The notes beneath the pieces were generated by a model that made no database searches, was not told the origin of the DNA, and was given only the letters and a program-made list of their open reading frames with translations. From Saccostrea cucullata (taxonomy: Eukaryota): a DNA stretch of 64,000 nucleotides. Position 1 is the stretch's first letter. Every line of letters begins with the position of its first letter. This document shows positions 20,441-54,367 of the stretch, in pieces. The DNA lies in the NCBI RefSeq assembly GCF_032062105.1, contig NW_026920581.1, positions 1,426,001 through 1,490,000 on the forward strand. Reading direction: 5' to 3'. Both the position numbers and the translations under genes were made by a program.

Positions 20441-21093
20441 AGCTAGTTGAAGAAATTAGATGTTTCCCCTTTTTCTAACGGGTATCGATGACTTTCAATC
20501 ATTGACTTTTCACATCTGTCAGTATTAATTATTTGCATTGATGAACATGACAATAACTTTAATTAATTGCTATAAAATAATGATATTTGGTAAATTTTAG
20601 CTGTGCTCGGGTTTTGGGGTCACAAAATTGGGAGAGCTTTGCCATACTTTAATAAAACATTAGTGGAATTTTAGACAAAGTACATGTATCTAATTTTTTG
20701 ATGATAAAATCCTTACAGGAAGAAAAAGAAACGTAATGTAACATTAATATATTTTTTTTAATATTCATGAACTAGAAAATTGATTTGTACAAAGAACTGT
20801 TTTTAACTGGATTTGTTTTAGACTAATACAAACAATTTTTCAATGACATGTAAATTAATGCATTTTTCATTTCTGTAAAATAAAGCATTAATATTTTACA
20901 ACATTATCACATTTTTTTTTCTATAAAAATTTAAATCAGGTTAAAGTTACTTAAAAATGGAACTAATTTGGACTGAAACTGTAAAAGATGTTAAAACATG
21001 TATATCTTCATTTAATTCAGAGATTTAATATGTGCAATATGATGCTTATATTCAACATATTTAAAATTATCCACAAGTGTCACAATTCAATAT

Positions 21094-24007
21094 TTATAAT
21101 TCAAAATAAGTTGGGCCATTGACCTTCTCTTCTAGATGTAAGTCTAGTTTTTTCTTCTTTAGAGCAACATACTCCTCGAATGAGGTCAAGATCTTCCTTT
21201 TGATGACAAGATCCTCTCTCATCAAGATCACCATCTCTCTTTGTATGGAGAGAAGCTCAGACGTGTCACCTATAAGAAATTCATTATATACCGTAATGCA
21301 TTAAAGCATGCAAAATTTAACATGTATGCAGACTTTAAACTCCAAATCACAGAAAACATTTTTGCAACATAACTTTTAACTAAATTCATATTCATTAATT
21401 ATACATAAAAAAATCCCAAAATTCACAAATTTAAAAAAAGTCTTTGGAGGGAAAAGGGGGGGGGGGTATAAAAAAAAAGCTCAAGAGGAATCTTACAGTA
21501 CAGGGGAAATAATTGCATCTTTAAGTAAATCTTTATGCAATACAATGAATAATTTACCTTTCCCTTTCTCCTGTACATGTGACTTTCTACTTTGCTTCTT
21601 GTCTGTCAAAACAAAAGTGAAACATGTAGGATATTCTTAAAATAATTTGTTACCGATAAATAAAAAAAAAAACGGATCTCAAAATTCGAAACAAAATATA
21701 ATTTACTTACTGAAATTGCTATTGTCAAGATCTGTGCCTGAAGTACTAGCTACCTCTGAATGAGAATTTTTAACCATCACTATACCAGAAAAAGAAAAAA
21801 AAATTGTTGAGACTTTATTCATGAATTGGTTTGACAGGTAAATTATACGAATGTTACAATTTGTCTAAAATCCAGATATTAAGGGACATTGATTCTCTGA
21901 TAAGAGAGAGATAACTCTTAATGACATAAATGTCTATTGTTCCTTTATTGAAAGGCCAAGTTGAAGTGTCTTTTTTGTCAAATATTGCCCCGCAAGTTAT
22001 GCTATAATTGTTTGTATTATACTTACAAAATACATTTCTTTTGGAAAATCATTACGGTTTAAGCAACATTTTATATGAGTAAGTAGAGGGTTTATGGACC
22101 TTAATTTAAGGACAACTAGAATAAAAGAAATGTTTTAAATCACCTGAGTTAAACTGTCTCTGTTCTTTCGCTGGCTCGTCCACTACAAAATTAATAAGGG
22201 TATATTACACATGTACTAAAGATAAATAACAGACATTTTAGAGTGAAGATTTTTAACCACACTTTACAAAAAAATAATAATAAAAAAAAAAAGAGCAGAA
22301 ACAAAAACTAGACATTAATATGATAGAAAATTTATTTCAGTGATTAATAATGTTTGATGAACATGATGATAAATTAATTCTGTGTTTAAAAGTGCATATA
22401 TTCATAACTGTCTTGCATTGCCAGGGAAATAACATATTGTTAAAAATAGTTCAGAATCGAGATATAATTCATTTATAATCATCTACAAGAAGGAGTGTTA
22501 AATCACCTGTGTCAAACTGCTTCTGCGGATGTTCTTGTTCTGGATTGCATGCTACAAAATATTATATAGGTTATGTTATACATGTACTGAAAATTCATCA
22601 CAAACAAAACACATGTTCAAAATTGCATATCAATCAACTCTGATTATAAAGAGATATGTGACCTCGGGGAAAAAGGGAATGTGGTATTTTTAAAGTTAAA
22701 GTTAGCATAGGTCTACGATATAGTTTATTTCATACCTTCTAAGCTTGTAACTGCCTCTGTGCACAGGAATGAAGCTGACCGGATTGGAAATACAGCACAT
22801 TCACTGTCTATAACAGAAATGATATCACTTGCTTTATGATAGGATACTAACGTAACTGAGATATTAAATCATTATGAAAATAATCAAGTGCCACTGATAA
22901 CTATAAATATAATTTATGTTTACATGTACAAATGTATATGTCAGAAAGCATTATCTACATTTATATTTATAAACAAATCACATACTAACATTAATTGTTT
23001 ATCATATGCCATTTTCAAAAGCAAGTATATATTTTTGTCCATATATTTACAATAAAGAATTTAACCTGAAACAAGACTGTCGCACCCCCCTGCAATGCCA
23101 GAGACCACAGTATTGGACATTATTCCAATGATCTAGAATGAAATTAATCAAAAATTAAACATTTAATATATGAACTCATTATTTATTTTCATCATTAAAT
23201 AAGAAACACACTTAGTTAAATATAATGGTTAATAAACATTTTATTTACATGTGTTGTGCTTTTTCAATTTCTGTATTATTTTGCAAGATTCATTGATAAA
23301 CAAAACCTTTTTCTCCCAATCTTTTATATCTGTTGGGGGTGGACCTCCGCCTGTCTGCCGTTGTGTTTTTAACCTCTCCACCTCCCTTTTTTTCGTGGAG
23401 GACTGAATATCCTGCCACTTCTTTTTCACTTCTTTCAACGTTCGCCCACATCCTCCTATGGCATTGATACTGCAAATAAAATAGATAGATCTGTACAACA
23501 AGAATGTCATTTATATTTTCAATGCGAGAAAAAAAATGATTAAATAAAAGTTATGAGAGAAAAAGTTTTTAATGAAATAGAAAGAATAAAATGTTGGATT
23601 AATCTAATCTGTGCAAAAACACTTTTTTATATACGTCTGAAACAATTAATTTTTACTAGCCCAGACCAACTAGTCTCGGGCGTCGGGCTAGTGGGTTTTC
23701 GTGAAGACTGGTCCCGTACTTGTACATTGTTTGCATAACGTCAATGAAATACTTAATTAGTTACCAAATTCTTGCAATATATCAAACAAATGATTTTTTT
23801 GAAGGGAAACTTGGATTTTTTTTCATAGTTTGTGGCTATTGCCTACCTGTTCATTATGGAAGTCCATGCGGCGGACTTATCAGCCGCAGTTAAGGAAGAC
23901 GAAAACTTTCCCTTTAAAATATCTCGTTTATCTTCGACCTGTTCCACTAACAGGGCAATTTCTGCTTCATTCCAGTTCCTCTTCCGTGCAGCCGCAGCGT
24001 TCTCCAT
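21094..24007 (-). CDS. Harbinger ORF2, Myb/SANT-like DNA-binding protein (~278 aa); exons 24007-23847, 23469-23307, 23132-23066, 22807-22736, 22551-22507, 22182-22144, 21779-21711, 21602-21558, 21269-21094
   Basis: MENAAAARKRNWNEAEIALLVEQV...KSAAWTSI...RTLKEVKKKWQDI...RQTGGGPPP (tri-Trp Myb/SANT plus TGGG motif) and a C-terminal coiled-coil-like exon. All joins are GT-AG and in frame (837 nt). The middle micro-exons are less certain. Confidence 0.82.
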
Positions 24008-24356
24008 TGTTTATATTTCGTCTGCTACTTTCACTTTTCCCGCACAGCTTACTGCGCATGAGCAGGTGTCGGTAACCAAGAAAGAAAAAATCTTACGATC
24101 GATTTTCACTTACGACAATGTGTCGATCTTACGACCACTTTCATGAATAGCTCCTAACTTTTATCTTAGGATTATCGTAAGTTCAAGTCGTAGTCGTAAA
24201 CTTACGATTTTTTGTGAATAGATGTCCGCTCATCATATTTAACAGAAAATACAAGATCACTAACAATCAGACCATTGTCCGCGTGGTGCAAAAATCTCTC
24301 TCCTTAATGGCCCTGAGTGCCGAGCAGAGGACAAAATTTGCAGCTTTCCACCGGAA

Positions 24357-24683
24357 AGTGGTTGTTCGGTCGTTAGAGCGCTCGCTTCGTCATTGGGGGG
24401 TTCGAATTTCAGCCATTCTGACCTAAGTCAATAAAAAATGGGTAGCACCTGTTCTTTCGCCATGCACTCGGCACTTTGAAGTGAAATTTGCTGGTCCTTC
24501 GGAAGTAACCTTAAAAGCGAGGTCCCCTGTCACGGCAGACGTTGGCACGATAAAAATCCCTTACTGCTCAATAGCCCTTAATGCCGAGTAAAGGTAAAAA
24601 TTTTAAAAACTTCACGATAACGATGACGTCTCTATTAGAGTGAAAAATTCTCCAATGGCACTTACAAAAATATTCAATCAATA
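24357..24683 (+). mobile_element. tRNA-derived SINE
   Basis: A-box-like GTGGTTGTTCGGTCG and B-box GGTTCGAAT, body GAGGTCCC...GGCACGATAAAAATCCC...GCCGAG, tail ATTCAATCAAT. Confidence 0.7.
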
Positions 24684-27600
24684 TATCCAATTGGTGTTGT
24701 TTCTTGGCTTCTATCACAGCCAAGATGGAGTACAAGCCACAGTGTGAAGTTTAATGAGTGAGTGCAAAACAAATCAATTTTTTTAATCCACTGGGTTTGT
24801 ATGTAGCACAGACAAAACCACGGACATTAGCAAATGGTACCACGTAAAAGCACTATCTATATTCAGACTGTACGTGACTTGAGTGAATCCACAATGCACA
24901 CACCCATCTTGGTGGGTCATGCTCCTCATATTCAACTGAAAATACAACATCACTAACAATTAGACAATAGAATGAACTTACCATCTTCCAATTTCGTACT
25001 GTTGACAAGTATACTTCAATTGGTTTTATTTCTGGCTTCTATCACAGCCATGACTGAGTACAAGTCACTGTCTAAAGGTTTATGAGTGAGTGGCTCAAAT
25101 CAGTTTTTTAATTCACTGCGTTTATCTACACATGTAGCATAGACAAAACCAGAGACAATAGCAACTGGTACCACGTACTAGCACTACCTATTCAGACTGT
25201 GACTTGAGTGCATCCACAATGTGAACACCTGTCTTGGTAGGCCATGCTCCTCATATTCAACTGAAAATACAACATCACTAACAATCAGACAATACAATAA
25301 ACTTACTTTTCTACTCTGCTGAAATTACAACATTTCAAACAATCAGACAATAGAAAAAACTTAGCATCTTTCAACTGGGTACTGATGGCAAGTATACTCC
25401 AATCGGTGTTGTTTCTTGGCTTCTTTCACGGCCAAGATGAAGTACAAGTCACAGTCTGAAAATGTATGAGTGAGTGGCTCAAATCAGTTTTTTAATCCAC
25501 TGGGTTATTTATAGCGTAGACAAAACTAGGCACATTAGAAACTGGTACCAATTTCTAGCACTACCTACCTATTCAGACTGTGACTTGAGTGCATCCACAA
25601 TGTGCACACCTATCTTGGTGGGCCATGCTCACCATATTCAACTGAAAATATATCAGCACTAACAATCAGACAATACAATAAACTTTATATGCTACCCTGC
25701 TGAAAATACATCATTAACAATCACACAAGAGAATAAACTTACCATCTTTCAATTGGGTACTGCTGGCAAGTATACTTCAATCGGTGTTGTTTCTTGGCTT
25801 CTATCACAGCCAAGATAGAGTACAAATCACAGTCTGAAGTTTTATGAGTAAGTGGCTCAAATCAGCTTTTTAATCCACTGGGTTTGTTTATAGCATAGAC
25901 AAAACCAAGGACATTAGCAACTGGTACCACATACTAGCACTACCTATTCAGACTGTGACTTAAGTGCATCCACAATGTGCACATCTCTCATGGTGGGCCA
26001 TACTTCTCATATTCAACTGAAAATACAACATCACAAACAATACCATCATCCAATTGGCAACTGCTGGGAAGTATACTTCAATTGGTTTTGTTTCTTGGCT
26101 TCAATCACAGCCAAGATAGAGTACAAGTCACAGTCAGAAGTTTTATGAGTGAGTGGCTCAAATCAGTTTTTTAATCCACTAGGTTTGTCTATACCATAGA
26201 AAAAACCAGGGACATTAGCAACTGGTACCCCGTACTAGCACTACATATTCAGACTGTGACTTGAGTGCATCCAGAATACGCACACCTCTCTTGGTGGGCC
26301 ATGCTCCCCATATTCAACTGAAAATACATCACTAACAATCAGACAATACAATAAACTTACTATGCTACTCTGCTGAAAATGCAACATCATTAACAATCAG
26401 ACAAGAGAATAAACTTACCATCATCCAATTGGCTACTGCTGGCAAGTATACTTCAATCGGTGTTGTTTCTTGGCTTCCATCACAGCCAACATGGAGTACA
26501 AGTCATAGTCTGAAGTTTTATGAGTGAGTGGCTCAAATAAGTTTTTTTTTATCCACTGGGTTTGTCTACAGCATAGACAAAACCAGGGACATTAGCAACA
26601 GGTACCACGTATTAGCACTACGTATTCAGACTCTGATTTGAGTGCATCCACAATGTGCACACCTATCTTGGTGGGCCATGCTCCTCTTATTCAAATGAAA
26701 ATGCAACATCACTAACAATCAGACATTACAATACACTTACTATTCTACTATGCTGAAAATACAACATCATTAACAATCAGACAATAGAATAAACTTACCA
26801 TCTTTAAATTGGGTACTGCTGGCAAGTATACTTCAATTGGTTTTGTTTCTTGGCTTCTATCGCAGCCAAGATGGAGTACAAGTCAAAGTCTGAAGTTCTT
26901 TAAGTGAGTGGCTCAAATCAGTTTTTTTTTATCCACTGGGTTTGTCTATACCATAGACAAAACCAGGGACATTAGCAACTGGTACCACGTACTAGTGCTA
27001 TCTATTCAGACTGTGAATGGAGTGCATCCACAATGTGCACATCTCTCATGGTGGGACATGCTCCTCATATTCAACTGAAAATACAACATCACTAACAATC
27101 AGACAATACAATACACTTATTATGTTATTCTGCTGAAAATACAACATTTCAAACAATCAGACAATAGAATCAACTTACCATCATCCAATTGGCTACTGCT
27201 GGGAAGTATACTTCAATTGGTCTTGTTTCTTGGCTTCTATCACAGCCAAGATAGAGTACAAGTCACAGTCAGAAGTTTTATGAGTGAGTGGCTCAAATCA
27301 GTTTTTTAATCCACTGGGTTTGTCTATACCATAGAAAAAACCAGGGACATTAGCAACTGGTACCCCATACTAGCACTACATATTCAGACTGTGACTTGAG
27401 TGCATCCAGAATACACACACCTCTCTTGGTGGGCCATGCTCCCCATATTCAGCTGAAAATACATCACTAACAATCAGACAATACAATAAACTTACTATGC
27501 TACTCTGCTGAAAATGCAGCATCATTAACAATCAGACAAGAGAATCAACTTACCATCATCCAATTGGCGACTGCTGGGAAGTATACTTCAATTGGTTTTG

Positions 27601-29336
27601 TTTCTTGGCTTCTATCACAGCCAAGATAGAGTACAAGTCACAGTCAGAAGTTTTATGAGTGAGTGGCTCAAATCAGTTTTTTAATCCACTGGGTTTGTCT
27701 AGACCATAGAAAAAACCAGGGACATTAGCAACTGGTACCCTGCACTAGCACTACATATTCAGACTGTGACTTGAGTGCATCCAGAATACGCACACCTCTC
27801 TTGGTGGGCCATGCTCCCCATATTCAACTGAAAATACAACATCACTAACAATCAGACAATACAATAAACTTACTATTCTACTATGCTGAAAATGCAACAT
27901 CATTAACAATCAGACAAGAGAATAAACTTACCATCATCCAATTGGCTACTGCTGGCAAGTATACTTCAATCGGTGTTGTTTCTTGACTTCCATCACAGCC
28001 AACATGAAGTACAAGTCAAAGGCTGAAGTTTTATGAGTGAGTGGCTCAAATCAGTTTTTTTTATCCACTGGGTTTGTCTACAGCATAGACAAAACCAGGG
28101 ACATTAGCAACACGTACCACGTACAAGCACTACGTATCCAGTCTCTGATTTGAGTGCATCCACAATGTGCACACCTATCTTGGTGGGCCATGCTCCTTTT
28201 ATTCAAATGAAAATGCAACATCACTAACAATCAGACAATACAATACAATTACTATTCTACTATGCTGAAAATACAACATCATTAACAATCAGACAATTAG
28301 AATAAACTTGCCATCTTCAATTGGGTACTGCTGCCAAGAATACTTCAATCAGTGTTGTTTCTTGCCTTCTTTCACAGCCAAGATGGAGTACAAGTCATAG
28401 TCTGAAGTTTTATAAATACGTGGCTCAAATCAGTTTTTTAATCCACTGGCTTTGTCTATAGCATAGACAAAACCAGGGACATTAGCAACTGGTACCACAT
28501 ACTAGCCCTACCTATTCAGACTGTTACTTGAGTGCATCTACAATGTGCACACCTCTCTTGGTGGGCCATGCTCTTCATATTCAACTGAAAATACAACATC
28601 ACTAAAAATGAGACAATACAATACACTTACTATTTCACTGTGCTGAAAATAGAAAATTTCAAACAATTACACAATAGAATAAACTTACCACCTTCCAGTT
28701 GGGTACTGCTGGCAAGTATACTTCAATCGGTGTTGTTTCTTGGCTTCTATCACAGCCAAGATGGAGTACAAGTCACAGTCTGAACTTTTTATGAGTGAGT
28801 GGCTCAAATCAGTTTTTTAATCCACTGGGTTTGTCTATACCATAGACAAAACCAGGGACATTAGCGAGTGTTACCACGTACTAGCACTATCTATTCAGAC
28901 TGTGACTTGAGTGCATCCAGAATACGCATACCTGTCTTAGTGGGCCATGCTTCCCATATTCAACTGAAAATACAATATCACTAACAATCACACAATACAA
29001 TACACTTACTATGCTATTCTGCTGAAAATACAACAATTCAAAAAATCAGACAATAGTATAAACCTACCATCTTTCAGATGGGTACTGCTGGCAAATATAC
29101 TTCAATCGGTGTTGTTTCTTGCCTTCTATCACAGCCAACATGAAGTACAAGTCAAAGGCTGAAGATTTATGAGAGAGTGGCTCAAATCAGTTTTTTTAAT
29201 CCACTGGGTTTGTCTACAGCATAGACAAAACCAGGGACATTAGCAACTGGTACCACGTACTAGCACTACGTATTCAGACTCTGATTTGAGTGCATCCACA
29301 ATGTGCACACCTATCTTGGTGGGCCATGCTCCTCTT

Positions 29337-32247
29337 GGTTACAGACTACTAATTTTACCCCTATTTCATTGACCACTCAAGTAGTTCCAGTTTAAAAATA
29401 GAGGTTTTTTCTTAAAAATTCTTTGGGGTGTTTATGGGGTGGACTGATGTTATTTCTGGGTTTAGATGGAAAGGAGAGGGTTTGAAAAAAAATAAAAAAT
29501 TGTTAATATGTGAAATTTTGCACTTGCGCGCGTAGTAGGAAGGGTGTAAAGAGGCCCATATTTACCCTTTCCCCGAAGAGAAAGTGAAAAAAGCAGGGTA
29601 GGGGTTATTTGCGATGCCTTAGCAGGAACTGCATGCGATGAATTTTCCTGAGAGTCTGAAAAATTTTTGGACTTGAATTCTTCTTACTCTGTGCCAAGTT
29701 TCAGGTAAGTTGAGCTGGTGTAATTTTTTTAATCATTTTTTATAGTATAAAGGAATGTATAGCAAAATAATTGGTAGTCTGTGTCCTATGAGGTCAAAGG
29801 TCAAATCTCACGTTAATCAATTTATTGGCACTTTTTGGATAATTTGGAACTAATTATGCAAATTGTTGACAAATTTTATGGAAAAAATTGTATTTTGGAG
29901 AAGTTAAATGGATTTAAATAATTGAAAAGGGGGAGGGGGCACCTGCTCAGCTTGTCAAAGGTATGACGTAATGTGTGCAATTGATGTGTGTCAAAAATTT
30001 ATGCAATATGAATTTTGATTCTATATATAATGTTGTAGGTGACATAAAACCCATTCCTCACCTATCCTGCTATTTTAAATGCCAAATGGAGTTCAAAAAC
30101 CAAGGTATGTTTTAAACATTTGATTGTTCAGATTACACTGTTGTTAATAGGAAAGTAATGCCTAATTTCTCAAAACTTTGGCTACTTGGTGTCTGTAATT
30201 TTAGTTGACACAGTTACTTATTAATTTGACACAATTACTTATTAATTATGAATGTGAACTAAAGTTGAAATTCTTAAAAATTTATTTTTTTTTCAGTGGC
30301 TCATTTCTACTGACTGATGTGGGATTGCAAGCAGTTATAGCCTGGATGGGTGGCTTCATAAAAAATCAGGCCAGTTGCCAGTCAGAAGTGAACAATTTTG
30401 TACCAGGAGCAGAGACAATGATCATTCAGAAAACAAGATACAGCTGTCAACAATATTGCAGTCCACAACAGCCAAGTTAAAGGTATATAGTCAACTGACT
30501 CTTAAGTTTGTATTTTTTTTTGTGTGTTTGATTTCTTTTTTACACTGTTTTCATCTGTCATCATCATCTCTTGCCAATCAATGTGTACTCTCTGAAACTT
30601 TCTCTTTTTCCTTCTTCTTTTGGAATTGAATATCTGCTGTCTGATTGCTGGCACTGATCTGTGATTGTCCAAGACAGGGGAGGTCAGTGAGGTGCTCAAC
30701 ATTTCATATGGGATGTTTGGTCCTACTGACTTCTTCTACTCTTGTGGCATCTTGGACATCATTGTCGGTGGTCGCATATCAGACAAAATCATCAGTTTTT
30801 GACAAGGACATATGTTTTCAAGATTTTGGATAAACACTGTGCAGAAATAGTGATACACAAGACAGACAGAATTTATGTACTCCATTTTAATAGAACCTTC
30901 TCTACCCCCCCCCCTCCCTGTTCTAGCTTCCAAGCATCTCCAGGAGTGATTATAGGTGACACAGGCATGGTATGTATTTTCTATGCTGAACCATTGAAAG
31001 TATATAGACATGCTTTTTAATCATTTTGTTTGTTTTGGTACCTTTACAGTGCAGAGTTGCCTCCCTTTTTTTTACAGCAGCCTGAAGAATGTTTGTAGGT
31101 AAAATGCATATATAAATTCCTTTTCTTGTAAATTCAGAATTATAAAATCCAAAATTTCACAGAATTTTTGGTATTTATTATCTAATAATGCATATTGTTA
31201 CAAGAAATACCCATCAAAGAAGTCTAAATATGACCAGGGATAATCCAATTAGAGTAGTAAGTACCACTTCCTGACAGAGGCTGAATTGACCAGGTTGGAT
31301 AATCTGCTTATAACAAAGGTATTAATCTCTTTCCCTTAACTTTTATACTAATTTTTTATAGCCTATATATTGTAGAATTTTTTAATATTTGTTTTACTAA
31401 AATTAAAATGTGCTAAATATTTTTATTTTTAATATTTCCAAGAATTTTATGCTTTTTGAAGGTACTTTTTTGAAAAATTGTTTAAAATATTTACTTATGC
31501 AATAGGTTAAGTTTTGTTCTTGAAATTTGTGTAGGACATATATATCTAGTATACAAAAATATAAGGAAAGAAAATAACTGTCATGCATGTGAGCTGTGAG
31601 CATTTCAAATCTGAGAACTGTGTGCCTAATGCTTATTTTACCCTCTGATTTAAGGTGTTCCAGCACATCAATTAAAGGGCCATAACTCTGCTTAGGAATC
31701 ATCAATTTCAATGAAACTTCACCGGCCACTTTGTAGATACAAAAAACTCCAGCATGTCAAATTTCAGCAAAATCAGACAAGGTTTGTGTCCTTATTAGGT
31801 TACAGACTACTAATTTTACCCCTATTTCATTGACCACTCAAGTAGTTCCAGTTTAAAAATAGAGGTTTTTTCTTAAAAATTCTTTGGGGTGTTTATGGGG
31901 TGGACTGATGTTATTTCTGGGTTTAGATGGAAAGGAGAGGGTTTGAAAAAAAATAAAAAATTGTTAATATGTGAAATTTTGCACTTGCGCGCGTAGTAGG
32001 AAGGGTGTAAAGAGGCCCATATTTACCCTATCCCCGAAGAGAAAGTGAAAAAAGCAGGGTAGGGGTTATTTGCGATGCCTTAGCAGGAACTGCATGCGAT
32101 GAATTTTCCTGAGAGTCTGAAAAATTTTTGGACTTGAATTCTTCTTACTCTGTGCCAAGTTTCAGGTAAGTTGAGCTGGTGTAATTTTTTTAATCATTTT
32201 TTATAGTATAAAGGAATGTATAGCAAAATAATTGGTAGTCTGTGTCC
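29337..32247. mobile_element. KolobokP-like composite element: two 450-bp long terminal direct repeats (29337-29786, 31798-32247) flanking a ~2-kb degenerate internal region
   Basis: The direct repeats are near-identical. Each has its own 18-bp imperfect TIR (GGTTACAGACTACTAATT / AATTGGTAGTCTGTGTCC). A 4-bp TSD TCTT occurs only at the outer ends, and removing the element restores satellite sequence GCTCCTCTTATTCAAATG. Confidence 0.85.
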
Positions 32248-32286
32248 TCTTATTCAAATGAAAATGCAACATCACTAACAATCAGA

Positions 32287-32962
32287 TTTTTTAACAGTAC
32301 TTGCAAGCATTTTCTTTAGGTATATATTGTGTGAACTGTTATTTTCCGTCTGTATCTTACGAAAGTCTGTTCATGTAAATCGCACATTTCAGACAGGAAA
32401 GGCAAGTCTACATATATTGTGTCAATTTTGAGCCCGATTAAATAATAACGAAACACGGGACTGATCCCGCTTTGAAGTCAACATAATGTAACGCATTCAG
32501 AATATTTTTTTTATTTCCGAGTCCAAATAAAAAAAAAGTATTAGTCAAATTGTTGAACTTTTAATTATACTATTGAAATTAATTAATTGTCTTCACACCG
32601 TTTACTTCGCAAGTGCCTTGAATAAAGGTTATGACTGAACGATACATACGGGTGAAATTATACAAGCTTGTTTAATTAAATAATTACATTGCACGTCTAC
32701 TAGATGGCAAAACTACCGTAATCGTTAGCCATAGAAATTAATTTAACAATTGACAAGTTTTATAAAACACCAACAACTACGTGTTTGTATACACTCTCAT
32801 AATTATAATGGCAGTCTACATCTAATCATAGATGATAATAAAATTTCAGTTTATCCTTATAAATCTTTACAAGAATTATTCACTGTATGTTGAATTCGCG
32901 GAATTTTTTTTCCCGCGAATATGGCGAATATTACCTCCGCAAGTTAATTTCCTGCTGTACAG
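32287..32962. mobile_element. 5'-truncated TA-targeting MITE (CTGTA...TACAG family) in the array
   Basis: Right end GCGAATATTACCTCCGCAAGTTAATTTCCTGCTGTACAG|TA resembles the end of 38285-39143. The left TIR and adjacent satellite sequence are missing. Confidence 0.7.
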
Positions 32963-35900
32963 TATTCAGACCGTGACTTAAGTGCATCCACAATGCGCAC
33001 ACCTATCTTGGTGGGCCATGCTCCTCATATTCAACTGAAAATACAACATCACTAACAATCAAACAATACAATACACTTACTATTTTACTATGCTGAAATT
33101 ACAACATTTCAAAGAACATTTCAAAGAATCAGACAAGAGAATAAACTTACCATCTTTCAATTGGGTACTGCTGGCAAGAATACTTCAATCGGTGTTGTTT
33201 CTTGGCTTTTATCACAGCCAACATGGAGTACAAATCACAGTCTGAAGTTTTATGAGAGAGTGAGTCATATCAGTTTTTTAATCCACTGGGTTTGTCTATA
33301 CCATAGACAAAACAATGGACATTAGCAACTGGTACCACGTACCAGCACTACCTATTCAGACTGTGACTAGAATGCATCCACAATGTGCACACCTGTCATG
33401 GTGGGCCAAGCCTCTCATATTCAACTGAAAATACAACAAAACAAACAATCAGACAACACAATACACTTACTATGCTACTCTGCTGAAAATACAACATTTC
33501 AAGGAATCAGACAAGAGAATAAACTTGCCATAATCAACTGGGTACTGCTGGCAAGTATATTTCAATCGGTGTTGTTTATTGGCTTCTGTCACAGCCAAGA
33601 TTGAGTAAAAGTCATAGTCTGAAGTTTTATGAGTGAGTGGCTCAAAGTCAAATCAGTTTTTTAATCCACTGGGTGTGTCTATACCCTAGACAAAACCAGG
33701 GACATTAGCGACTGGTACCACGTACTAGCACTATCTATTCAGACTGTGACTTGAGTGCATCCAGAATACGCACACCTGTCTCAGTGGGCCATGCTCCCCA
33801 TATTCAACTGAAAATACAATATCACTAACAATCACACAATACAATAAACTTACTATGCAACTCTGCTGAAAATGCAACATCATTAACAATCAGAAAAAAG
33901 AATAAACTTACCATCATCCAATTGGCTACTGCTGGGAAGTATACATCAATCGGTGTTGTTTCTTGGCTTCCATCACAGCCAAGATGGAGTACAAGTCATA
34001 GTCTGAAGTTTTCTGAGTGAGTGGCTCAAATCAGTTTTTTAATCCACTGCGTTTCTCTATATCATAGAAAAAACCAGGGACATTAGCAACAGGTACCACG
34101 TACTAGCACTACGTACTCAGACTCTGACTTGAGTGCAACCACAATGTGCACACTTATCTTGGTGGGCCATGCTCCTCTTATTCAAATGAAAATACAACAT
34201 CACTACCAATCACACGATACAATAAACTTACTATTTTACTATGCTGAAATTAAAACATTTCAAAATATCAGACAAGAGAATAAACTTACCATCTCACAAT
34301 TGGGTACTGCTGGCAAGTATACCTTAATTTGTGTTGTTTCTTGGCCTGTATAACAGCCAACAGGGAGTACAAGTCGCAGTCTGAAGTTTTATGAGTGAGT
34401 GGCTCAAATCAGTTTTTTAATCCACTGGGTTTATCTATAGCATGGACAAAACCAGGGCCATTAGCAACAGGTACCACGTACTAGCACCACCTATTCAGAC
34501 TGTGACTTGAGTGCATCTACAATGTGCACACCTCTCTTGGTGGGCCATGCTCACCATATTCAACTGAAAATACATCACTAACAATCAGACAATACATTAC
34601 ACTTACTGTTCTATTATGCTGAAAATACAACATCATTAACAATCAGACAATAAAATAAACTTACCATCTTTCAATTGGGTACTGCTGGCAAGTATACTTC
34701 AATCGGTGTTGTTTCTTGGCTTCTATCACAGCCAAGATGGAGTACAAGTCACAGTCTGAAGTTTTATGAGTGAGTGGCTCAAATCAGTTTTTAATCCACT
34801 GGGTTTGTCTATAGCATAGACAAAACCAGGGACATTAGCAACTGGTACCACATACTAGCACTTCCTATTCAGACTGTGACTTGAGTGCATCTACAATGTG
34901 CACAACTCTCTTGGTGGGCCATGCTCTTCATATTCAACTGAAAATACAACATCACTAAAAATGAGACAATACAATACACTTACTATTTCACTGTGCTGAA
35001 AATAGAACATTTCAAACAATTAGACAATAGAATAAACTTACCATCTTTCAATTGGGTACTGCTGTCAAGTATACTTCAATCGGTGTTGTTTCTTGGCTTC
35101 TATCACAGCCAAGATGGAGTACAAGTCACAGTCTGAAGTTTTATGAGTGAGTGGCTCAAATCAGTTTTTATGAGTGGCTCAAATCAGTTTTTTAATCCAC
35201 TGGGTTTGTCTATACCATAGAAAAAACCAGGGACATTAGCAACTGGTACCATGTACTAGCACTACCTATTCAGACTCTGACTTAAGTGCATCCACAATGT
35301 GCACACCTATCTTGGTGGGCCATGCTCCTCACATTCACCTGAAAATACAACATCACTAACAATCAAACAATACAATACACTTACTATTTTACTATGCTGA
35401 AATTGCAACATTTCAAAGAATCAGACAAGAGAATAAACTTACCTTCTTTAAATTGGGTACTTCTGGCAAGAACACTTCAATCGGTGTTGTTTCTTGGCTT
35501 CTATCACAGCCAACATGGAGTACAAGTCACAGTCTGAAGTTTTATGAGTGAGTGGCTCAAATCAGTTTTTAATCCACTGGGTTTATCTATAGCATAGACA
35601 AAACCAGGGACATTAGCAACTGGTACCACGTACTAGCACTATCTATTCAGACTGTGACTTGAGTGCATCTACAATGTGCACACCTCTCTTGGTGGGCCAT
35701 GCTCACCATATTCAATTGAAAATACAACATCACTAACAATCAGACAATACAATAAACTTACTATTCTACTATGCTGAAAATACAACATCATTAACAATTA
35801 GACAATAAAATAAACTTACCATTATTCAATTGGGTACTGCTGGCAAGAATACTTCAATTGGTGTTGTTTCTTGCCTTCTATCACAGCCAAGATGGAGTAC

Positions 35901-38284
35901 AAGTCACAGTCTGAAGTTCTATAAATAAGTGGCTCAAAATCAGTTTTTTAATCCACTGGGTTTATCTATGGCATAGACAAAACCAGGGACATTAGCAACT
36001 GGTGCCACGTACTAGCACTACCTATTCAGACTGTGACTTGAGTGCATCCACAATGTGCAAACCTCTCTTGGTGGGCCATGCTCACCATATTCAACTGAAA
36101 ATACAACATCACTAACAATCAGACAATACAATAAACTTACTATGCGACTCTGCCGAAAATACAACATCATTAACAATCAGACAATACAATAAACTTACCA
36201 TCTTTCTATTGGGTACTGCTGGCAAGTATACTTCAATCAGTGTTGTTTCTTTGCTTCTATCACAGCCAAGATGGAGTACAAGTCACAGTCTGAAGATTTA
36301 TGAGTGAGTGGCTCCAATCAGTTTTTTAATCCACTGGGATTGTCTATACCATAGACAAAACCAGGGACATTAGCAACTGGTACCACGTACTAGCACTATC
36401 TATTCAGACTGTGACTTGAGTGCATCCACAATGTGCACGTCTCTCATGGTGGGTCATACTCCTCATATTCAACTGAAAATACAACATCACTAACAATCAG
36501 ACAATACAATAAACTTACTATGCAACTCTACCGAAAATACAACATCATTTACAATCAGACAGTAGAATAAACTTACCATCTTTCTATTGGGTACTGCTGG
36601 CAAGTATACTTCAATCGGTGTTGTTTCTTGGCTTCTATCACAGCCAAGATGGAGTACAAGTCACAGTCTGAAGATTTATGAGTGAGTGGCTCCAATCAGT
36701 TTTTAATCCACTGGGATTGTCTATAGCATAGACAAAACCAGGGACATTAGCAACTGGTACCACGTACTAGCGCTATCTATTCACCCTGTGAATTGAGTGC
36801 ATCCACAATGTGCACGTCTCTCATGGTGGGTCATACTCCTCATATTCAACTGAAAATACAACATCACTAACAATCAGACAATACAATAAACTTAGTATTC
36901 TACTATGCTGAAAATACAACATCATTAACAATTAGACAATAAAATAAACTTACCATCATCCATTTGGGTACTGCTGTCAAGAATACTTCCATCGGTGTTG
37001 TTTCTTGCCTTCTATCACAGCCAACATGGAGTACAAGTCATAGTCTGAAGTTCTATATATAAGTGGCTCAAATCAGTGTTTTAATCCACTGGGTTTATCT
37101 ATGGCATAGACAAAACCAGGGACATTAGCAACTGGTGCCACGTACTAGCACTACCTATTCAGACTGTGACTTGATTGCATCCACAATGTGCAAACCTCTC
37201 TTGGTGGGCCATGCTCCTCATATTCAACTGAAAATACAACATCACTAACAATCAAACAATACAATAAACTTACTATTTTACTCTGCTGAAAATGCAACAT
37301 CATTAACAATCAGACAACAGAATAAACTTACCATCTTTCAATTGGGTACTGCTGGCAAGAATACTTCAATCGGTGTTGTTTCTTGGCTTCTATCACAGCC
37401 AACATGGAGTACAAGTCACAGTCTGAAGTTTTATGAGAGAGTGGCTCAAATCAGTTTTTTATCCACTGGGTTTGTCTATACCATAGACAAAACCAAGGAC
37501 ATTAGCAACTGGTACCACATACTAGCACTACCTATTCAGACTGTGACTTGAGTGCATCTACAATGTGCACACCTCTCTTGGTAGGACATGCTCCTCATAT
37601 TCAACTGAAAATACAACATCACTAACAATCAGACAATACAATAAACTTACTATTTTACTATGCTGTAAATGCAACATCATTAACAATCAGACAACAGAAT
37701 AAACTTACCATCTTTCAATTGGGTACTGCTGGCAAGTATACTTCAATCGGTGTTGTTTGTTGGCTTTTATCACAGCCAAGATTGAGTACAAGTCACAGTC
37801 TGAAGTTTTATGAGTGAATGGCTCAAATCATTTTTTTAATCCACTGGGTTTGTCTATAGCATACAAGAAACCCGGGACATTAGCAACTGGTACCACGTAC
37901 TAGCACTGTCTATTCAGACTTTGACTTGAGTGCATCTTCAATGTGCACACCTCTCTTGGTGGACCATGCTCACCATATTCAACTGAAAATACATCACTAA
38001 CAATCAAACAATACAATACACTTACTATTTCACTGTGCCGAAAATAGAACATTTCAAACAATCAGACAATAGAATAAACTTACCATCTTTCAGTTGGGTA
38101 CTTCTGGCACGTATACTTCAATCGGTGTTGTTTCTTGGCTTCTATCACAGCCAAGATGGAGTACAAATCACAGTCTGAAGTTTTTATGAGTGAGTGGCTC
38201 AAATCAGTTTTTAAATCCACTGGGTTTGTATATACCATAGACAAAACCAGGGACATTAGTAACTGGTACCACGTACTAGCACTA

Positions 38285-39143
38285 CTGTATAGGGGATTAA
38301 TTTCACGGGTTGTAATTTTCACGTTTTTCTCTCATCTGACACACGCGGTTTCTTCTTCGCGGAATTTGGTATGTAATAAAAGTTACTTCCCTTGTCTCCA
38401 TTTAATCCATACCCTAGCTACATGTAAGCGACATTAATCAGCGTTATGTCTTTATTTCACGAACAACAGGGTAAGTTATTATAAAATTGTTAGATTTTAT
38501 AAATAATTAATTAACACAAGTGCAGTTATTAATAGTCCCTAAACGTGAAATGAATTTCCTATATGCTATAACGATGAGTGCATGTGCACCCGAGATCTTC
38601 GATACAACACAGCGAAAAACTACTGGACGGAAATAAAACTTTTTATGCAGTTCTACGAAATAATATCCTTCCACACTTCCTTCGTCAGTAAGTTCGATAT
38701 TTATTTGAATGATTTTTTAAAAATCAAAATGTCGATAAAAACTACATGAACTAATATGCATGAGAATGCAGGTAACAAATACACGTGGTAACATTAGTTA
38801 CGCACGGGTAATCAAAACCCATGGCCCACGTGTTTTGATTGATGAAACATGTAGCGTTGGCTATTAAAACAGCTTTTGAACAAACACAAATTATTATCTG
38901 CCGATTTGAATTAAAGTAAAGCGTGATAATTAAAATTAATTGAATGACGGTACTACTCGCAATTACTGAAATGACCATGGACTGCACGAACACCTTTATA
39001 AATCTATCGTAGTGTATTCTCAATTTTCCAAATAAAACATGGAGATTATTGAAAATTTATTCACTGTTTCTTGAATTCACGGATTTGTTAACACCGTGAA
39101 TATAGCGAATATTAACACCGCGAGTTATTTTCCCCCTATACAG
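38285..39143. mobile_element. 859-bp MITE with TA TSD (Tc1/mariner-like)
   Basis: GCAC-TA|CTGTATAGGGGATTAATTTCACGG ... CCGCGAGTTATTTTCCCCCTATACAG|TA-CCTATTCAG. The empty site in other monomers is GCACTACCTATTCAG. Confidence 0.9.
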
Positions 39144-42100
39144 TACCTATTCAGACTGCGACTTGAGTGCATCCACAATGTGCAAACCTCTCTTGGTGGG
39201 CCATGCTCCTCATATTCAACTGAAAATACAACATCCCTAACAATCAAACAATACAATAAACTTACTATTTTACTCTGCTGAGAATGCAACATCATTAACA
39301 ATCAGACAACAGAATAAACTTACCATCTTCCAATTGGCTACTGCTGGCAAGTATACTTCAATCGGTGTTGTTTCTTGGCTTTTATCACAGCCAAGATGGA
39401 GTACAAGTCACAGTCTGAAATTTTATGAGTGAGTGGATCAAATCAGTTTTTTAATCCAATGGGTTTGTCTATACCATAGAAAAAACCAGGGACATTAGCA
39501 ACTGGTACCACGTACTAACACTACCTATTCAGACTGTGACTTAAGTGCATCCACAATGTGCACACCTATCTTGGTGGGCCATGCTCCTCACATGCAACTG
39601 AAAATACAACATCACTAACAATCAAACAATACAATACACTTACTATTTTACTATGCTGAAATTGCAACATTTCAAAGAATCAGACAAGAGAATAAACTTA
39701 CCATCTTTCAACTGGGTACTGCTGGCAAGAATACTTCAATCGGTGTTGTTTCTTGGCTTCTATCACAGCCAAGATGGAGTACAAATCACAGTCTGAAGTT
39801 TTATGAGAGAGTGGCTCAAATCAGTTTTTTTATCCACTGGGTTTGTCTATACCATAGACAAAACCAAGGACATTAGCAACTGGTACCACATACTAGCACT
39901 GTCTATTCAGACTTTGACTTGAGTGCATCTTCAATGTGCACACCTCTCTTGGTGGACCATGCTCACCATATTCAACTGAAAATACAACATCACTAACAAT
40001 CAGACAATACAATAAACTTACTATTCTACTCTGCTGAAAATACAACATCATTAACAATCAGACAATAGAATAAACTTACCATCTTTCAGTTGGGTTCTGC
40101 TGCTGGCAAGTATACTTCAATCGGTGTTGTTTCTTGGCTTCTATCACAGCCAAGATGGAGTACAAGTCACAGTCTGAAGTTTTTATGAGTGAGTGGCTCA
40201 AATCAGTTTTTTAATCCACTGGGTTTGTATATACCATAGACAAAACCAGGGACATTAGCAACTGGTACCACATACTAGCACTACCTACAATGTATTCAGA
40301 CTGTGACTTGAGTGCATCCACAATGTACACACCTCTCTTGGTGGGCCATGCTCCTCATATTCAACTGAAAATACAACATCACTAACAATCAGACAATACA
40401 ATAAACTTACTATTCTACTCTGCTGAAAATACAACATCATTAACAATCAGACAATAGAATAAACTTACCATCTTCCAATTGGGTACTGCTGGCAAGTATA
40501 CTTCAATCGGTGTTGTTTCTTGGCTTCCATCACAGGCAAGATGGAGTACAAGTCACAGTCTGAAGTTTTTATGAGTGAGTGGCTCAAATCAGTTTTTTAA
40601 TCCAATGGGTTTGTCTATACCATAGAAAAAACCAGGGACATTAGCAACTGGTACCACATACTAGCACTACCTATTCAGACTGTGACTTGAGTGCATCTAC
40701 AATGTGCACACCTCTCTTGGTAGGACATGCTCCTCATATTCAACTGAAAATACATCACTAACAATCAGACAATACAATACACTTACTATTTTACTATACT
40801 GTAAATGCAACATCATTAACAATCAGACAACAGAATAAACTTACCATCTTCCAATTGGCTACTGCTGGCAAGTATACTTCAATCGGTGTTGTTTCTTGGC
40901 TTTTATCACAGCCAAGATGGAGTACAAGTCACAGTCTGAAGTTTTATGAGTGAGTGGCTCATATCAGTGTTTTAATCCACTGGGTTTGTCTATAGGATAG
41001 AAAAAACCCGGGACATTAGCAACTGGTACCACGTACTAGCACTGTCTATTCAGACTTTGACTTGAGTGCATCTTCAATGTGCACACCTCTCTTGGTGGAC
41101 CATGCTCACCATATTCAACTGAAAATACATCACTAACAATCAAACAATACAATACACTTACTATTTCACTGTGCTGAAAATAGAACATTTCAAACAATCA
41201 GACAATAGAATAAACTTACCATCTTTCAGTTGGGTACTTCTGGCAAGTATACTTCAATCGGTGTTGTTTCTTGGCTTCTATCACAGCAAAGATGGAGTAC
41301 AAGTCACAGTCTGAAGTTTTTATGAGTGAGTGGCTCAAATCAGTTTTTTAGTCCACTGGGTTTGTATATACCATAGACAAAACCAGGGACATTAGTAACT
41401 GGTACCACGTACTAGCACTACCTACTCAGACTGTGACTTGAGTGCATCCACAATGTTCACACCTCTCTTGGTGGGCCATGCTCCCCATATTCAACTGAAA
41501 ATACAACATCACTAAAAATCAGACAATACAATAAACGTATTTTGCTACTCTGCTGAAAATGCAACATCATTAACAATCAGACAATAGAATAAACTTACCA
41601 TCTTCCAATTGGGTACTGCTGGCAAGTGTACTTCAATCGGTGTTGTTTCTTGGCTTCCATCACAGCCAAGATCGAGTACACGTCGCAGTCTGAAGTTTTA
41701 TGACTGAGTGGCTCAAATCAGTTTTTTAATCCACTGGGTTTATCTATAGCATAGACAAAACCAGGGACATTAACAACTGGTACCACATACTAGCACTACC
41801 TATTCAGACTGTGACTTGAGTGCATCCACAATGTACACACCTCTCTTGGTGGGCCATGCTCCTCATATTCAACTGAAAATACAACATCACTAATAATCAG
41901 ATAATACAATACACTTACTATGCTATTCTGCTGAAAATACAACATTTCAAACAATTAGACAATAGAATAAACTTACCATCTTTCAGTTGGGTACTGCTGG
42001 CAAGTATACTTCAATCGGTGTTGTTTCTTGCCTTCTATCACAGCCAACATGGAGTACAAGTCATAGTCTGAAGTTCTATATATAAGTAGCTCAAATCAGT

Positions 42101-44469
42101 GTTTTAATCCACTGGGTTTGTCTATACCATAGACAAAACCAGGGACATTAGCAACTGGTACCACGTACTAGCACTACCTATTCAGACTGTGACTTGAGTG
42201 CATCCACAATGTGCACACCTCTCTCGATGGGCCATGCTCACCATATTCAACTGAAAATACATCACCAACAATCAGACAATACAATAAACTTACTATTCTA
42301 CTATGCTGAAAATACAACATCATTAACAATCAGAAAATAAAATAAACTTACCATCTTTCAATTGGGTACTGCTGACAAGTATACTTCAATCGGTGTTGTT
42401 TCTTGTCTTCTATCACAGCCAACATGGAGTACAAGTCATAGTCTGAAGTTTTATAAATAAGTGCCTCAAATCAGTTTTTTAATCCACTGGGTTTATCTAT
42501 GGCATAGACAAAACCAGGGACATTAGCAACTGGTACCACGTACTAGCACTACCTATTCAGACTGTGACTTGAGTGCATTCACAATGTGCACACCTCTCTC
42601 TGTGGGCCATGCTCCTCATATTCAACTGAAAATACAACATCACTAACAATCAGACAATATAATAAACTTCCAATTGATGATTTGAGTACTGTTGGGAAGT
42701 ATGGGGATAACCAGTGACATTATTAGCTGTTACGTGTTTTGTTTTTGTTATCCACGCAATGGGAAATATCTTATTTTTTAAATGCACTTTTAACTATCTA
42801 AACATTTTTAATTTTCATTTCAGCAGTGATTTTTAAACCCAATAATTTCATTGTATGTTACTATAAAATAAAAATTCACATTTGACTAGTAGATTGCGTG
42901 TTATAAACGAAAAACAGATCAAGAAATATTCTAGAGAGTAACGGGTATGTTTTTTCGAATGAGGTGAAGTTTTGGTATTTGGTCTTATTTCATGACAATG
43001 CATTCAGACTGTTCTGAAAACTAGTTTTCTTTATAGTTACAATTGTTACGATAATTGTATTTTTATGCTTTCTAGCGTTACTTTGTGTTAAAAGTTATTT
43101 CAAAATAAGATGAACATTGACATAAATTTGATAAAATGCTTTAATTAAGATCACCATACCTGTTGTTCTCGTTTGTATTTCTTTTTTAACCCCTCCTTCC
43201 CTCCGTTCACCCAAAGCCTTCGCGGCTTACAACTCGAGTGAAGTCATGGTAACAGCATCCGGGTTATTTCCACAAGTAACGTTCGGAGCGGAAACTGTGT
43301 AAAAATCCGGAATTTTAAGAGATGTTTTAGTTCATGTCTCAAATTAAAGTGTATTTAAAAAATAATAATGATAATCAATTAAATACAAATTTAAGCAACT
43401 GATTAATATTCAATATCTTTGTGTTATAAAGGGCAAGTACATGAAATGTAGGTTGAAAGAGTAGAAGAAACTGATAATAGTTCAGCATGTTGTTCAATCA
43501 ATATTCATCTTACTTTACATACAGTTTTGTCCAAGCTGATGTATAGTAAATCTGTTTTTTGACTCACTTATCTTCCTTTTTATGCGTGAAAATTATGCCC
43601 GACCAGCATAACTACTGAACATGTATCATGCATCTCTCTGTGCAGTGTTGTTGATAATCAATGAATTATAACAAATAAAGGGTTTTTATTTTCATTTCGT
43701 AAAATAAAATACATTTACAAATGAAGTTTACCCCAACACCAAACATGTTTGTATGAACCAAACCTGTCTGGTTGCTTTCTGCCTTGTATATTTTGCTATT
43801 TCTGTCTCTGCAGGAGTTACACCGTCCGCACACTTTCGCGCTCCATAACTCTTTGTTGACACAGAATCTACTTCCTTGGTAACCGATTCTCATTCGGAAC
43901 ATCCTCTGTCGTTTTCCTATGAAAGTGACCAATATTTCCGAGTGTTTCCTTCATAGACGAGTTATGCCCCTTTCTTTGATTTTTTTTATTGGCGAAAATT
44001 ACACAAATCACCTCTAAACAGTGACGCATAAAACTTGAATCTTCATCCAAGGATACTTTGTGGTAAGTTTAGTGGAAAATGGCCCAGTGGTTTTTTGTAG
44101 ACTGACAGACAGACAGCTAAACAGACAGCTTTCAATAAATGTAGATCTATTTTACGTGGTAAGGTACCATACATGATACAATGAGATTTATTTTGATCAT
44201 CAAGAATTTGTTATCATCAGAGACCTTAATCTCAGCGAGATTCGTAGGGACTAAAATTTTGGTCTAGCGTCCACACACCAGACCAAAATTTAAGTCCCTT
44301 ACACAGTCCTAAAGTTTAAGTTTTAGTACCTGTACATACATATGCTTCCTTGTCAGCGAGTTTTATAAACACATTCTTTAAAAAACAAATTATAACAAGC
44401 AATTATGCCGGGGGGGGGGGGGGGGGGGCTTTTCGAGTTAGTTAGAGGTCAAGTTATCAACTACCTGTC

Positions 44470-54279: not shown

Positions 54280-54310
<31 letters not shown>

Positions 54311-54327
54311 TCTTACTCAAGGATACT

Positions 54328-54367
<40 letters not shown>

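Follow-up and report, generated by a model that had tools for sequence, protein, structure and literature searches.

What kind of gene or repeat is a tandem array in which nearly every unit carries the splice signals of an exon and an intron? We addressed this question in a 64,000-nucleotide stretch of the Saccostrea cucullata genome (contig NW_026920581.1, positions 1,426,001 to 1,490,000), referred to here in its entirety as the window. An initial annotation had read the array either as an amplified exon-intron unit or as one long non-coding RNA (lncRNA) of about 35 near-identical spliced exons.

Architecture of the window array

The minus-strand splice motifs of the array are real: the plus strand contains 27 copies of ACTTACCATC and 34 of CTGAAAATACAACA, with no occurrence of either in the opposite orientation. 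The array holds 35 full hairpin cores and 32 complete acceptor-to-donor units, is interrupted at 29335-32962 and 38285-39143, and comprises the following parts.

43764..43990, minus strand: upstream block A, CpG-rich and promoter-like, with a putative alternative first exon; donor AG/GT at 43763
43160..43345, minus strand: upstream block B, CpG-rich and promoter-like, with a putative first exon; donor CAG/GT at 43159
43239-43262: 24-nt family motif in block B
42670..43013, minus strand: degenerate first unit (tentative), monomer remnants with no hairpin and a decayed donor
39141..42625, minus strand: array segment 1, composed of 378-bp exon-intron units, with its first acceptor at 42626
38285..39143, no strand: MITE-like insertion with terminal inverted repeats and TA on both sides; splits one hairpin
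32963..38284, minus strand: array segment 2
36199..36472, minus strand: example exon of 274 nt (42% GC) with stops in every frame; fold z -4.55
36279..36418, minus strand: predicted long hairpin of the example exon, with a 14-16-bp outer stem
36308-36386, minus strand: inner hairpin of the example exon, with an internal loop of 6x5 and an apical loop of 3 nt, both predicted
36248..36271, minus strand: small 3' hairpin of the example exon, whose stem and loop contain an 11-nt miR-2 match
36095..36198, minus strand: example intron, 104 nt, 31% GC; a 46-nt unit doubled around 12 nt
29335..32962, no strand: compound transposon-like insertion, a MITE-like piece plus about 2.9 kb between two direct copies of about 450 bp
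24688..29334, minus strand: array segment 3, whose final unit is cut short at 24688
24225..24275, minus strand: orphan acceptor with a fragment of an exon start, flanked by a SINE-like piece and a Harbinger element

The example exon and intron match their earlier description in position, length and base composition. From its sequence, the degenerate first unit is tentatively a possible second exon. The insertion at 38285..39143 is presumably MITE-like, following the usual rules for terminal inverted repeats and target-site duplications (TIR/TSD). An apparent sharp 5' terminus of the upstream homology at 43991 proved to be an artefact, the edge being caused by an insertion in the window copy.

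Splice sites are kept in most units, with AG present in 28 of 32, GT in 29 (GC in 2 more) and both in 25. Where introns are doubled, the inner acceptor is retained in 28 of 30 and the inner donor in 26 of 30. The 12-nt micro-exon proposed between the halves is unlikely, because its 46-nt flanking introns would fall below the entire set of 95 validated native introns (minimum 56 nt, 93 of 95 at least 79 nt); this set comes from a crude gene finder run on 12 myosin stretches, which also gave 53 unvalidated introns, including ones of 27 and 49 nt. The copies are less alike than "near-identical" implies, mean pairwise identity among 33 exons being 88% (range 70-97%). When one monomer was shuffled 2000 times, a strict donor and acceptor appeared on one strand in 4.75% of cases, so that the splice motif alone is only mildly unlikely. 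Nor are splice sites in the window array more conserved than their neighbours (GT, 3 changes against 3.8 expected; AG, 4 against 4.7), and support for them comes from the remaining family members.

A multi-locus family with a shared promoter-like block

A genome search revealed a multi-locus family in place of one lncRNA, with 38 arrays and 744 full hairpin cores; these probably represent about 28 distinct loci, 10 arrays being probable alleles or recent duplicates. Most arrays are preceded, always in the same orientation, by a common CpG-rich promoter-like block and a first-exon donor. The promoter-like element has 36 genome matches, and each match with sufficient downstream DNA leads into a same-strand array. 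The observed/expected CpG ratio is 0.97 in block A and 1.21 in block B, compared with 0.46 for the window. The block A donor AG/GT is present in 21 of 21 aligned loci and the block B donor CAG/GT lies at most 125 nt downstream in 28 of 32, while all 30 genome-wide matches to the 24-nt motif of block B fall at family loci (control, 0). The promoter-like blocks contain words that we take to be MYB-, E2F- and RFX-like.

Beyond these blocks, 5' homology between loci fades gradually with no terminus, and the 3 kb adjoining each of 29 array ends held no last exon common to the loci. Copy number is labile, as two stretches with a common 3' flank carry 51 and 11 units, and hairpin variants track subfamily descent across different contigs. 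Family exons measure 265-285 nt and none of 398 is open in any frame, as had been noted for the copies translated earlier, which leads us to reject a protein-coding repeat. What stands of the initial annotation is the amplified exon-intron unit, a non-coding gene unit and not a plain satellite, with GT/AG kept across divergent subfamilies and a shared promoter-like block; the single lncRNA does not.

A constrained, predicted long hairpin in each exon

The splicing-centred reading is also incomplete, having overlooked the most constrained part of the unit. Each family exon bears a predicted rod hairpin of about 140 nt, and the fold z-score of the whole hairpin lies between -5.7 and -9.1 in all 7 subfamily consensuses examined. 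The inner hairpin reaches -4.5 to -5.5 in the 7 consensuses, in line with the stable, unbranched hairpin of about 60-90 nt expected of a canonical miRNA gene; for the window consensus, the predicted fold prefers a branched base. Over 41 pairs, 95.2% of cells are paired, compared with 28-39% in slid controls, for a pair structure taken from averaged single-sequence pair probabilities, of which a consensus fold kept only 21 pairs. Two stem pairs are altered on both sides (GC/UA 342/130 and CG/UA 357/140 in 566 copies), each possibly through one event, and both lie in perfect stems, where DNA template switching is also capable of producing them. Double-change pairs do not exceed shuffles (4 against 3.0; 124 of 500 shuffles). 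On the minus strand, changes forming G.U are tolerated somewhat more than those forming A.C, a weak asymmetry (ratio 1.37, 95% CI 0.95-1.98).

The predicted apical loop of 3-5 nt closes a 9-bp stem; no part of the hairpin varies more than this apex, which could open. Canonical pre-miRNAs have a terminal loop of at least 8 nt, longer than that predicted here, and at least 16 paired bases between arms of about 22 nt. Pairing of 22-nt arms here amounts to 15 bases with the loop free, and 17 only if the duplex reaches the apex. The minimum free energy index (MFEI) is 0.80-0.93, compared with 0.90-1.19 for the six miR-2 hairpins of the same genome. As modelled, the inner hairpin is thus atypical for an animal pre-miRNA in its short apical loop, conserved 6x5 internal loop and low MFEI.

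Among eight deep subfamilies, identity is 0.97 in the outer stems and 0.92 in the inner hairpin, 0.92 at the donor and 0.86 at the acceptor, 0.59-0.72 in exon flanks and 0.36-0.40 in the intron interior. All 17 subfamily consensuses have GT, +5G, +6T and AG unchanged, whereas the exon base preceding GT is variable. Within arrays, the hairpin varies less than base-matched exon flanks in 35 of 36 cases, a contrast possibly inflated by the picking of cores with a core HMM, by indel-rich flanks and by the 10 probable alleles or recent duplicates. With a hairpin/flank ratio of 0.87, the window array is among the least constrained and may be a relaxed or decaying family member. Hairpin arms are more conserved than the apex (parsimony rates, 522 cores, 28 stretches), and unpaired bases are likewise constrained. 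Conservation covers about 140 nt including the outer stem, which would be dispensable in a pre-miRNA, with no standout 22-mer; the least variable one is the 5' arm of the inner hairpin.

Many family members have no usable splicing and retain the hairpin, which sits between acceptor and donor and would be intronic only in acceptor-less units. Such units make up 14 of 15, 12 of 14 and 23 of 32 in example arrays, and family introns measure 91-126, 46, 39 or 30 nt, with acceptor loss and re-doubling as further variants. Because young subfamilies kept an almost invariant hairpin while the intron shrank to 30-46 nt, below all 95 measured native introns, or the acceptor was lost, the payload appears to be the hairpin and not splicing. 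Hairpin/flank ratios of 0.22-0.50 in arrays whose units mostly have no acceptor fit a payload released independently of splicing. In two lineages the intron was re-lengthened to about 104 nt through duplication, and the window copy has such a re-doubled 104-nt intron.

Candidate functions

Starting from the observed architecture, family, conservation pattern and absence of coding frames, we tentatively interpret the array as a polycistronic hairpin small-RNA host resembling C19MC or hp-CG4068, a reading to which we give slightly less than an even chance. The family would then likely be a very large, undescribed putative small-RNA gene family. Pol II would transcribe the minus strand of the window from blocks A/B, and introns of 91-126 nt (104 nt in the window) would be spliced. 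Each locus would yield a polycistronic primary transcript, and Drosha/Dicer would cut its hairpins to deliver a very high dose of one small regulatory RNA. Cropping would take place irrespective of whether a hairpin is exonic, lies in a short intron that is retained or falls inside a long one. The family may have been amplified by unequal recombination inside individual loci and by segmental duplication from locus to locus. Molluscs are reported to retain Drosha and Dicer-1 without Dicer-2 (PMC11114477, PMC12479628, in the accessible text). No target complementarity of at least 14 nt occurred in 674 kb outside the arrays (about 0.06% of the genome). We speculate further, while judging it unlikely, that some 750 exon-embedded hairpins of about 140 nt at about 28 co-regulated loci form a new class of long-hairpin RNA gene in a lineage without Dicer-2, with non-canonical processing or a dedicated protein, amplification through germline or early-embryo conflict, and an intron length floor restored by duplication in two lineages.

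The transcripts could instead act intact, as a family of spliced lncRNAs whose repeated exon is a structured protein-binding module, a scaffold or localisation signal like the Firre RRD. This would suit a fold unlike a pre-miRNA, conservation of unpaired bases and of the entire 140 nt, the restoration of the intron to about 104 nt in two lineages, and the exonic position of the hairpin in long-intron subfamilies, where GT and AG are conserved (27 changes against 48 expected). We regard it as unlikely, given that acceptor-poor arrays would splice their hairpins out, yet the hairpins stay constrained, and that no common last exon lies within 3 kb of the 29 array ends. Conserved promoter-like blocks and first-exon donors at nearly all loci argue in turn against a gene of exon, intron and hairpin that once functioned and now spreads as a satellite, with its palindrome driving breaks and gene conversion that would keep the hairpin homogeneous in the absence of any RNA function. 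So do hairpin variants that follow subfamily descent on separate contigs, constraint on unpaired hairpin bases, and short perfect stems with outer arms about 110 nt apart, which make a poor cruciform. Rapid copy-number change (51 versus 11 units), decayed introns, transposon insertions, ragged 3' ends and weak constraint in the window array speak for such a satellite, as does the capacity of template switching to generate compensatory pairs; we hold it to be rather unlikely.

Uni-strand piRNA precursor genes would produce spliced transcripts processed into phased 26-30-nt RNAs, with the conserved segment as a guide or trigger site and the miR-2 match as a possible entry or sponge site. The MYB-, E2F- and RFX-like words assumed in the promoter-like blocks would accord with this, as would the match itself: 11 nt (36258-36268) match the first 11 nt of the miR-2 encoded in this genome, with an 8-mer seed match in 363 of 566 cores and a duplex of -22.6 kcal/mol. 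Available parts of PMC6128900 and PMC12479628 describe piRNAs as abundant in molluscs. The site evolves at an average rate (rank 85 of 208 8-mers, rate ratio 0.99), entire subfamilies have lost it (0 of 15, 1 of 22), and a conserved fold is unnecessary for piRNA precursors, making this origin distinctly improbable. A miR-2 sponge or decoy was rejected as well, the site being real, yet no more constrained than its surroundings. An internal tandem repeat of a non-autonomous (Helentron-type) transposon or a MITE array is very improbable and already largely refuted, despite a common 5' flank, TIR-like inverted repeats of 14-16 bp and the commonness of such satellites in oysters (PMC8268682, in part). 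Loci share no 3' end, their 5' homology fades with no terminus, splice sites are conserved, and the then-known family arrays account for 509 of the 539 genome-wide occurrences of a hairpin 17-mer and for 1037 of the 1116 occurrences of the stem 14-mer; in three singletons that we checked, homology extended no further. A MITE or Helentron-type element should be dispersed in copies that end at the same defined termini, and no such copies were found. Rfam scans found no ribozyme family, which removes a retrozyme, and snoRNA boxes, SECIS, IRE, Y RNA and Sm sites, in the consensus forms we know, gave no conserved match or Rfam support.

Relation to known systems

An Rfam 15 scan gave a best hit at E 0.21, far below the gathering score, and no hit in four other family loci. 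Six family motifs are absent from nine supplements of the Pacific oyster miRNA survey PMC4138081, where a miR-2 control was found, and six 9-10-nt motifs from the supplement of PMC8268682, which possibly contains no sequences. An exact 22-mer is absent from metagenome and viral contigs. Six 13-nt family motifs did not occur in any paper searched, and our search returned no paper on a bivalve repeated-exon RNA, only analogues.

If the hairpins are processed, repeat masking would be concealing a small-RNA family of about 750 assembled copies, in regions whose multi-mapping reads are usually thrown away. By comparison, the accessible part of the Pacific oyster survey gives 100 miRNA precursors in total (PMC4138081). 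This one genome also displays the transition from gene cassette to satellite, its natural intron variants (91-126, 46, 39 and 30 nt, acceptor loss, re-doubling) probe minimum intron length, and the family supplies exact junctions, a promoter and arms as testable predictions.

As in miRNA genes, conservation is stronger in the arms than in the loop. The repetition of non-coding exons that carry consensus splice sites is C19MC-like, the position of the hairpin between acceptor and donor is not, and tandem long fold-backs on one transcript resemble Drosophila hpRNAs by anatomy alone. Fish miR-430 is a massive paralogous hairpin cluster acting at high dose, composed of canonical pre-miRNAs with read support; we know of no exon-intron cassette there or in the Tribolium clusters. 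The Tribolium early-embryo miRNA clusters, as far as the accessible text of PMC4691753 goes, likewise combine massive lineage-specific paralogous hairpins with high dose, but are canonical pre-miRNAs with read support. Oyster dispersed satellite DNAs also form short arrays at many loci; in the available portion of PMC8268682 they differ from the present arrays, which have a conserved upstream promoter-like block, splice sites and a constrained hairpin. In Firre, the local repeat RRD overlaps repeated exons (7 of 13 in human, 11 of 23 in mouse) as an RNA module, but there is one locus with long irregular introns, and no long conserved hairpin is reported in the accessible part of PMC4820808.

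The closest counterparts are small-RNA hosts. C19MC is a non-coding Pol II host whose exons are repeated and whose 46 related hairpins sit in repeated units of 400-700 bp, giving an exon-step RT-PCR ladder (PMC2691840, accessible text). Its pre-miRNAs are intronic and canonical and its single locus is Alu-rich, whereas the oyster family has predicted exonic, near-identical hairpins of about 140 nt at about 28 loci, each with a promoter-like block. The Drosophila hp-CG4068/esi-2.1 and hp-tHMG clusters share tandem long hairpins, a common transcript, 9-20 copies and fast copy-number change (PMC10317233, in part). Fly hpRNAs need Dicer-2/AGO2, however, reported in the accessible text of PMC11114477 as lost in Trochozoa, and derive from and match a target gene, whereas the oyster hairpins had no target match in 674 kb; the oyster arrangement of one intron per hairpin is undescribed for fly hpRNAs in the available part of PMC10317233. 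If processed, the oyster hairpins would provide an invertebrate parallel to C19MC and to the tandem hpRNAs of flies, in a phylum from which the siRNA pathway is reported to be missing.

The window array and its surroundings

The window array has a period of 378 bp and runs on the minus strand from 42702 to 24688, interrupted by two insertions. It lies among the following features:

6050-7552, MFS_1 transporter in a single 501-aa open frame (E 6e-33)
15850-24220, PIF/Harbinger-type transposon immediately downstream of the array, with DDE_Tnp_4 pieces on the plus strand (E 2e-23)
within 15850-24220, minus strand (that of the array), multi-exon Myb/SANT gene of this transposon (E 5e-10)
24300-24640, SINE-like piece between the array end and an orphan acceptor, with tRNA-like boxes
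29335-32962, insertion in the array
29336-29786 and 31790-32233, pair of near-identical ~450-bp copies that have short inverted ends, inside the array
38285-39143, insertion in the array
49737-50027, minus strand, frame resembling a transporter exon, with no Pfam match
53306-56293, two 166-bp tandem arrays, then an ACAG microsatellite, which we take to resemble oyster Helentron-associated satellites
57415-58134, 76-bp tandem repeat built from 29-30-bp subunits
63684-63998, TANGO2 exon at the window end (E 1e-11)

Between them, the ~450-bp copies enclose about 2 kb within the array, in an LTR-like layout of MITE-like units. Immediately past the right edge of the window lie three long frames that overlap (L095, 5540-8711), as is typical of a DIRS-type retrotransposon, a candidate by frame layout.

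The initial annotation had described splice motifs in nearly every monomer, and this holds: AG is found in 28 and GT in 29 of 32 complete units, with GC in two further, and the two splice motifs occur 27 and 34 times, always in the same orientation. Its example exon (36472-36199) and intron (36198-36095) were placed exactly. The array's exons share a mean identity of 88%. A donor-acceptor pair like the monomer's arises in 4.75% of shuffles of one monomer, and the proposed check of splice bases against their neighbours gave no higher conservation within this array; the window alone therefore cannot decide the splice question. Searching the monomer against its own genome, as had been suggested, yielded matches on many contigs (387 matches scored). 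The reading as an amplified exon-intron unit or lncRNA is partly supported, with the single locus giving way to a multi-locus family of hairpin-bearing exons.

Splice sites across the family

In the deep subfamilies, introns measure 78-141 nt, with unrelated interiors and identical ends. All 17 subfamily consensuses agree on +1G, +2T, +5G, +6T and the terminal AG, while the exon base preceding GT varies between G, A and T. Within arrays, with one locus left out, GT and AG changes numbered 27 against 48 expected in long-intron arrays and 33 against 42 in short-intron arrays. Judged from sequence comparison, the splice sites are real at the family level. Among 95 validated native introns from 12 myosin stretches, 93 reach 79 nt or more and none is shorter than 56, so that 104 nt is a normal length for this genome and introns of 30-46 nt are probably unspliceable. 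A midpoint-rooted exon tree nests the window array within the short-intron clade, making its 104-nt intron a secondary doubling; a second lineage reached ~104 nt via a different duplication. The acceptor is wholly missing in 143 of 566 family units.

A common start

DNA upstream of the window array on the minus strand matches 36 places in the genome, each followed, where enough downstream DNA exists, by a same-strand array. The two conserved upstream blocks are CpG-rich, their observed/expected ratios being 0.97 and 1.21, compared with 0.46 across the window and 0.20 across the array. Block A (43764-43990) ends in an AG|GT donor at 21/21 aligned loci and block B (43160-43345) at 28 of 32, the exceptions being two loci broken by an insertion and two joined straight to array sequence. 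A 24-nt block B motif has 30 genome matches, all at family loci (control, 0).

The sample comprises 38 arrays with 744 full cores (complete hairpin copies). Ten of the arrays are probable alleles or recent duplicates, as their flanks or sequence are closely common with another array, leaving about 28. Of the 539 copies of a hairpin 17-mer in the genome, 509 fall within sampled arrays, so the sample is nearly complete and the family is not dispersed. Array 3' ends are ragged, and a search for a common terminus found none. At least one array, at L124 6010-9435, lacks the promoter block in the 6 kb upstream; with decayed donors and an inverted fragment at its start, it is likely an orphan. A second, divergent locus (G000:C2718:1397600-1408000; L040, L067) lies ~60 kb from the window array and faces it, and two loci ~80 kb apart on contig C21811 face away from each other. 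At L026 4470-9342, a higher-order 446-bp unit joins one full core to a hairpin-deleted partial unit.

The hairpin

The exon folds with a z-score of -4.55 (opposite strand, -4.75; whole unit in another phase, -0.45). Averaged pair probabilities predict a ~140-nt rod in which a 14-bp outer stem and a large internal loop lead to an inner hairpin of ~81 nt, itself interrupted by a 6x5 internal loop and closed by a 3-nt apical loop; the rod scores from -5.7 to -9.1 across seven subfamilies. In 51 distinct real copies, pairing is kept in 95.2% of cells, and 40 cells have both sides changed, mostly in two pairs, for which template switching is another possible source.

Comparison of eight deep subfamilies gives identities of 0.97 for the outer stems and 0.92 for the inner hairpin, 0.59-0.72 for exon flanks and 0.36-0.40 for intron interiors. 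Of 36 arrays, 35 show less variation in the hairpin than in base-matched exon flanks (0.6-0.8% against 6-8% in extreme arrays), a comparison limited by its HMM-selected cores, indel-rich flanks and related copies; the window array, at a ratio of 0.87, lies near the weak end. The arms are conserved more than the apex, and the minus strand tolerates wobble-forming changes somewhat better (1.37, CI 0.95-1.98). We regard the predicted hairpin as the probable payload of the unit.

A small 3' hairpin carries an 11-nt match to miR-2 nucleotides 1-11. The 8-mer miR-2 site occurs in 363 of 566 cores, is absent from whole subfamilies and evolves at an average rate. The genome's mir-2 loci (L069-L076) comprise a cluster on C18254, five hairpins in 3.6 kb, and a further paralogue on three contigs.

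Possible function and known systems

What the sequences show are repeated non-coding exons that follow a promoter-like block and first-exon donors, splice sites that long-intron forms conserve, and a predicted hairpin under constraint. The array may be a small-RNA host, a reading we hold tentatively, at a little short of even. Pol II would transcribe the array, each hairpin would be cut out of the nascent transcript and cropped into a small RNA, and hairpin copy number would set the dose. This reading draws chiefly on the persistence of hairpin constraint in units that no longer splice or would splice the hairpin out, as cutting from the nascent transcript would predict. Against this, comparison with the native miR-2 hairpins marks the modelled fold as atypical for a pre-miRNA, and constraint, as read from sequence, reaches beyond 80 nt. 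The alternatives grow progressively less probable: an intact scaffold lncRNA is doubtful, a conversion-driven relic unlikely, a piRNA precursor improbable and a transposon very improbable.

No Rfam family matched, and the family's motifs appeared neither in the full texts searched nor in the Pacific oyster miRNA tables of PMC4138081. The literature searched, which did not extend to subscription papers or repeat libraries, held no earlier description of the family. PMC6128900, PMC8268682 and PMC4691753 provide context only.

C19MC (PMC2691840) and hp-CG4068 (PMC10317233) are the systems the array would work most like. Each has a defining feature that the present family lacks, and we file it in neither: the hairpin here is exonic, unlike in C19MC, and Dicer-2, on which hp-CG4068 depends, is reported lost (PMC11114477, PMC12479628). 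With Firre (PMC4820808), the family has an exonic repeat in common.
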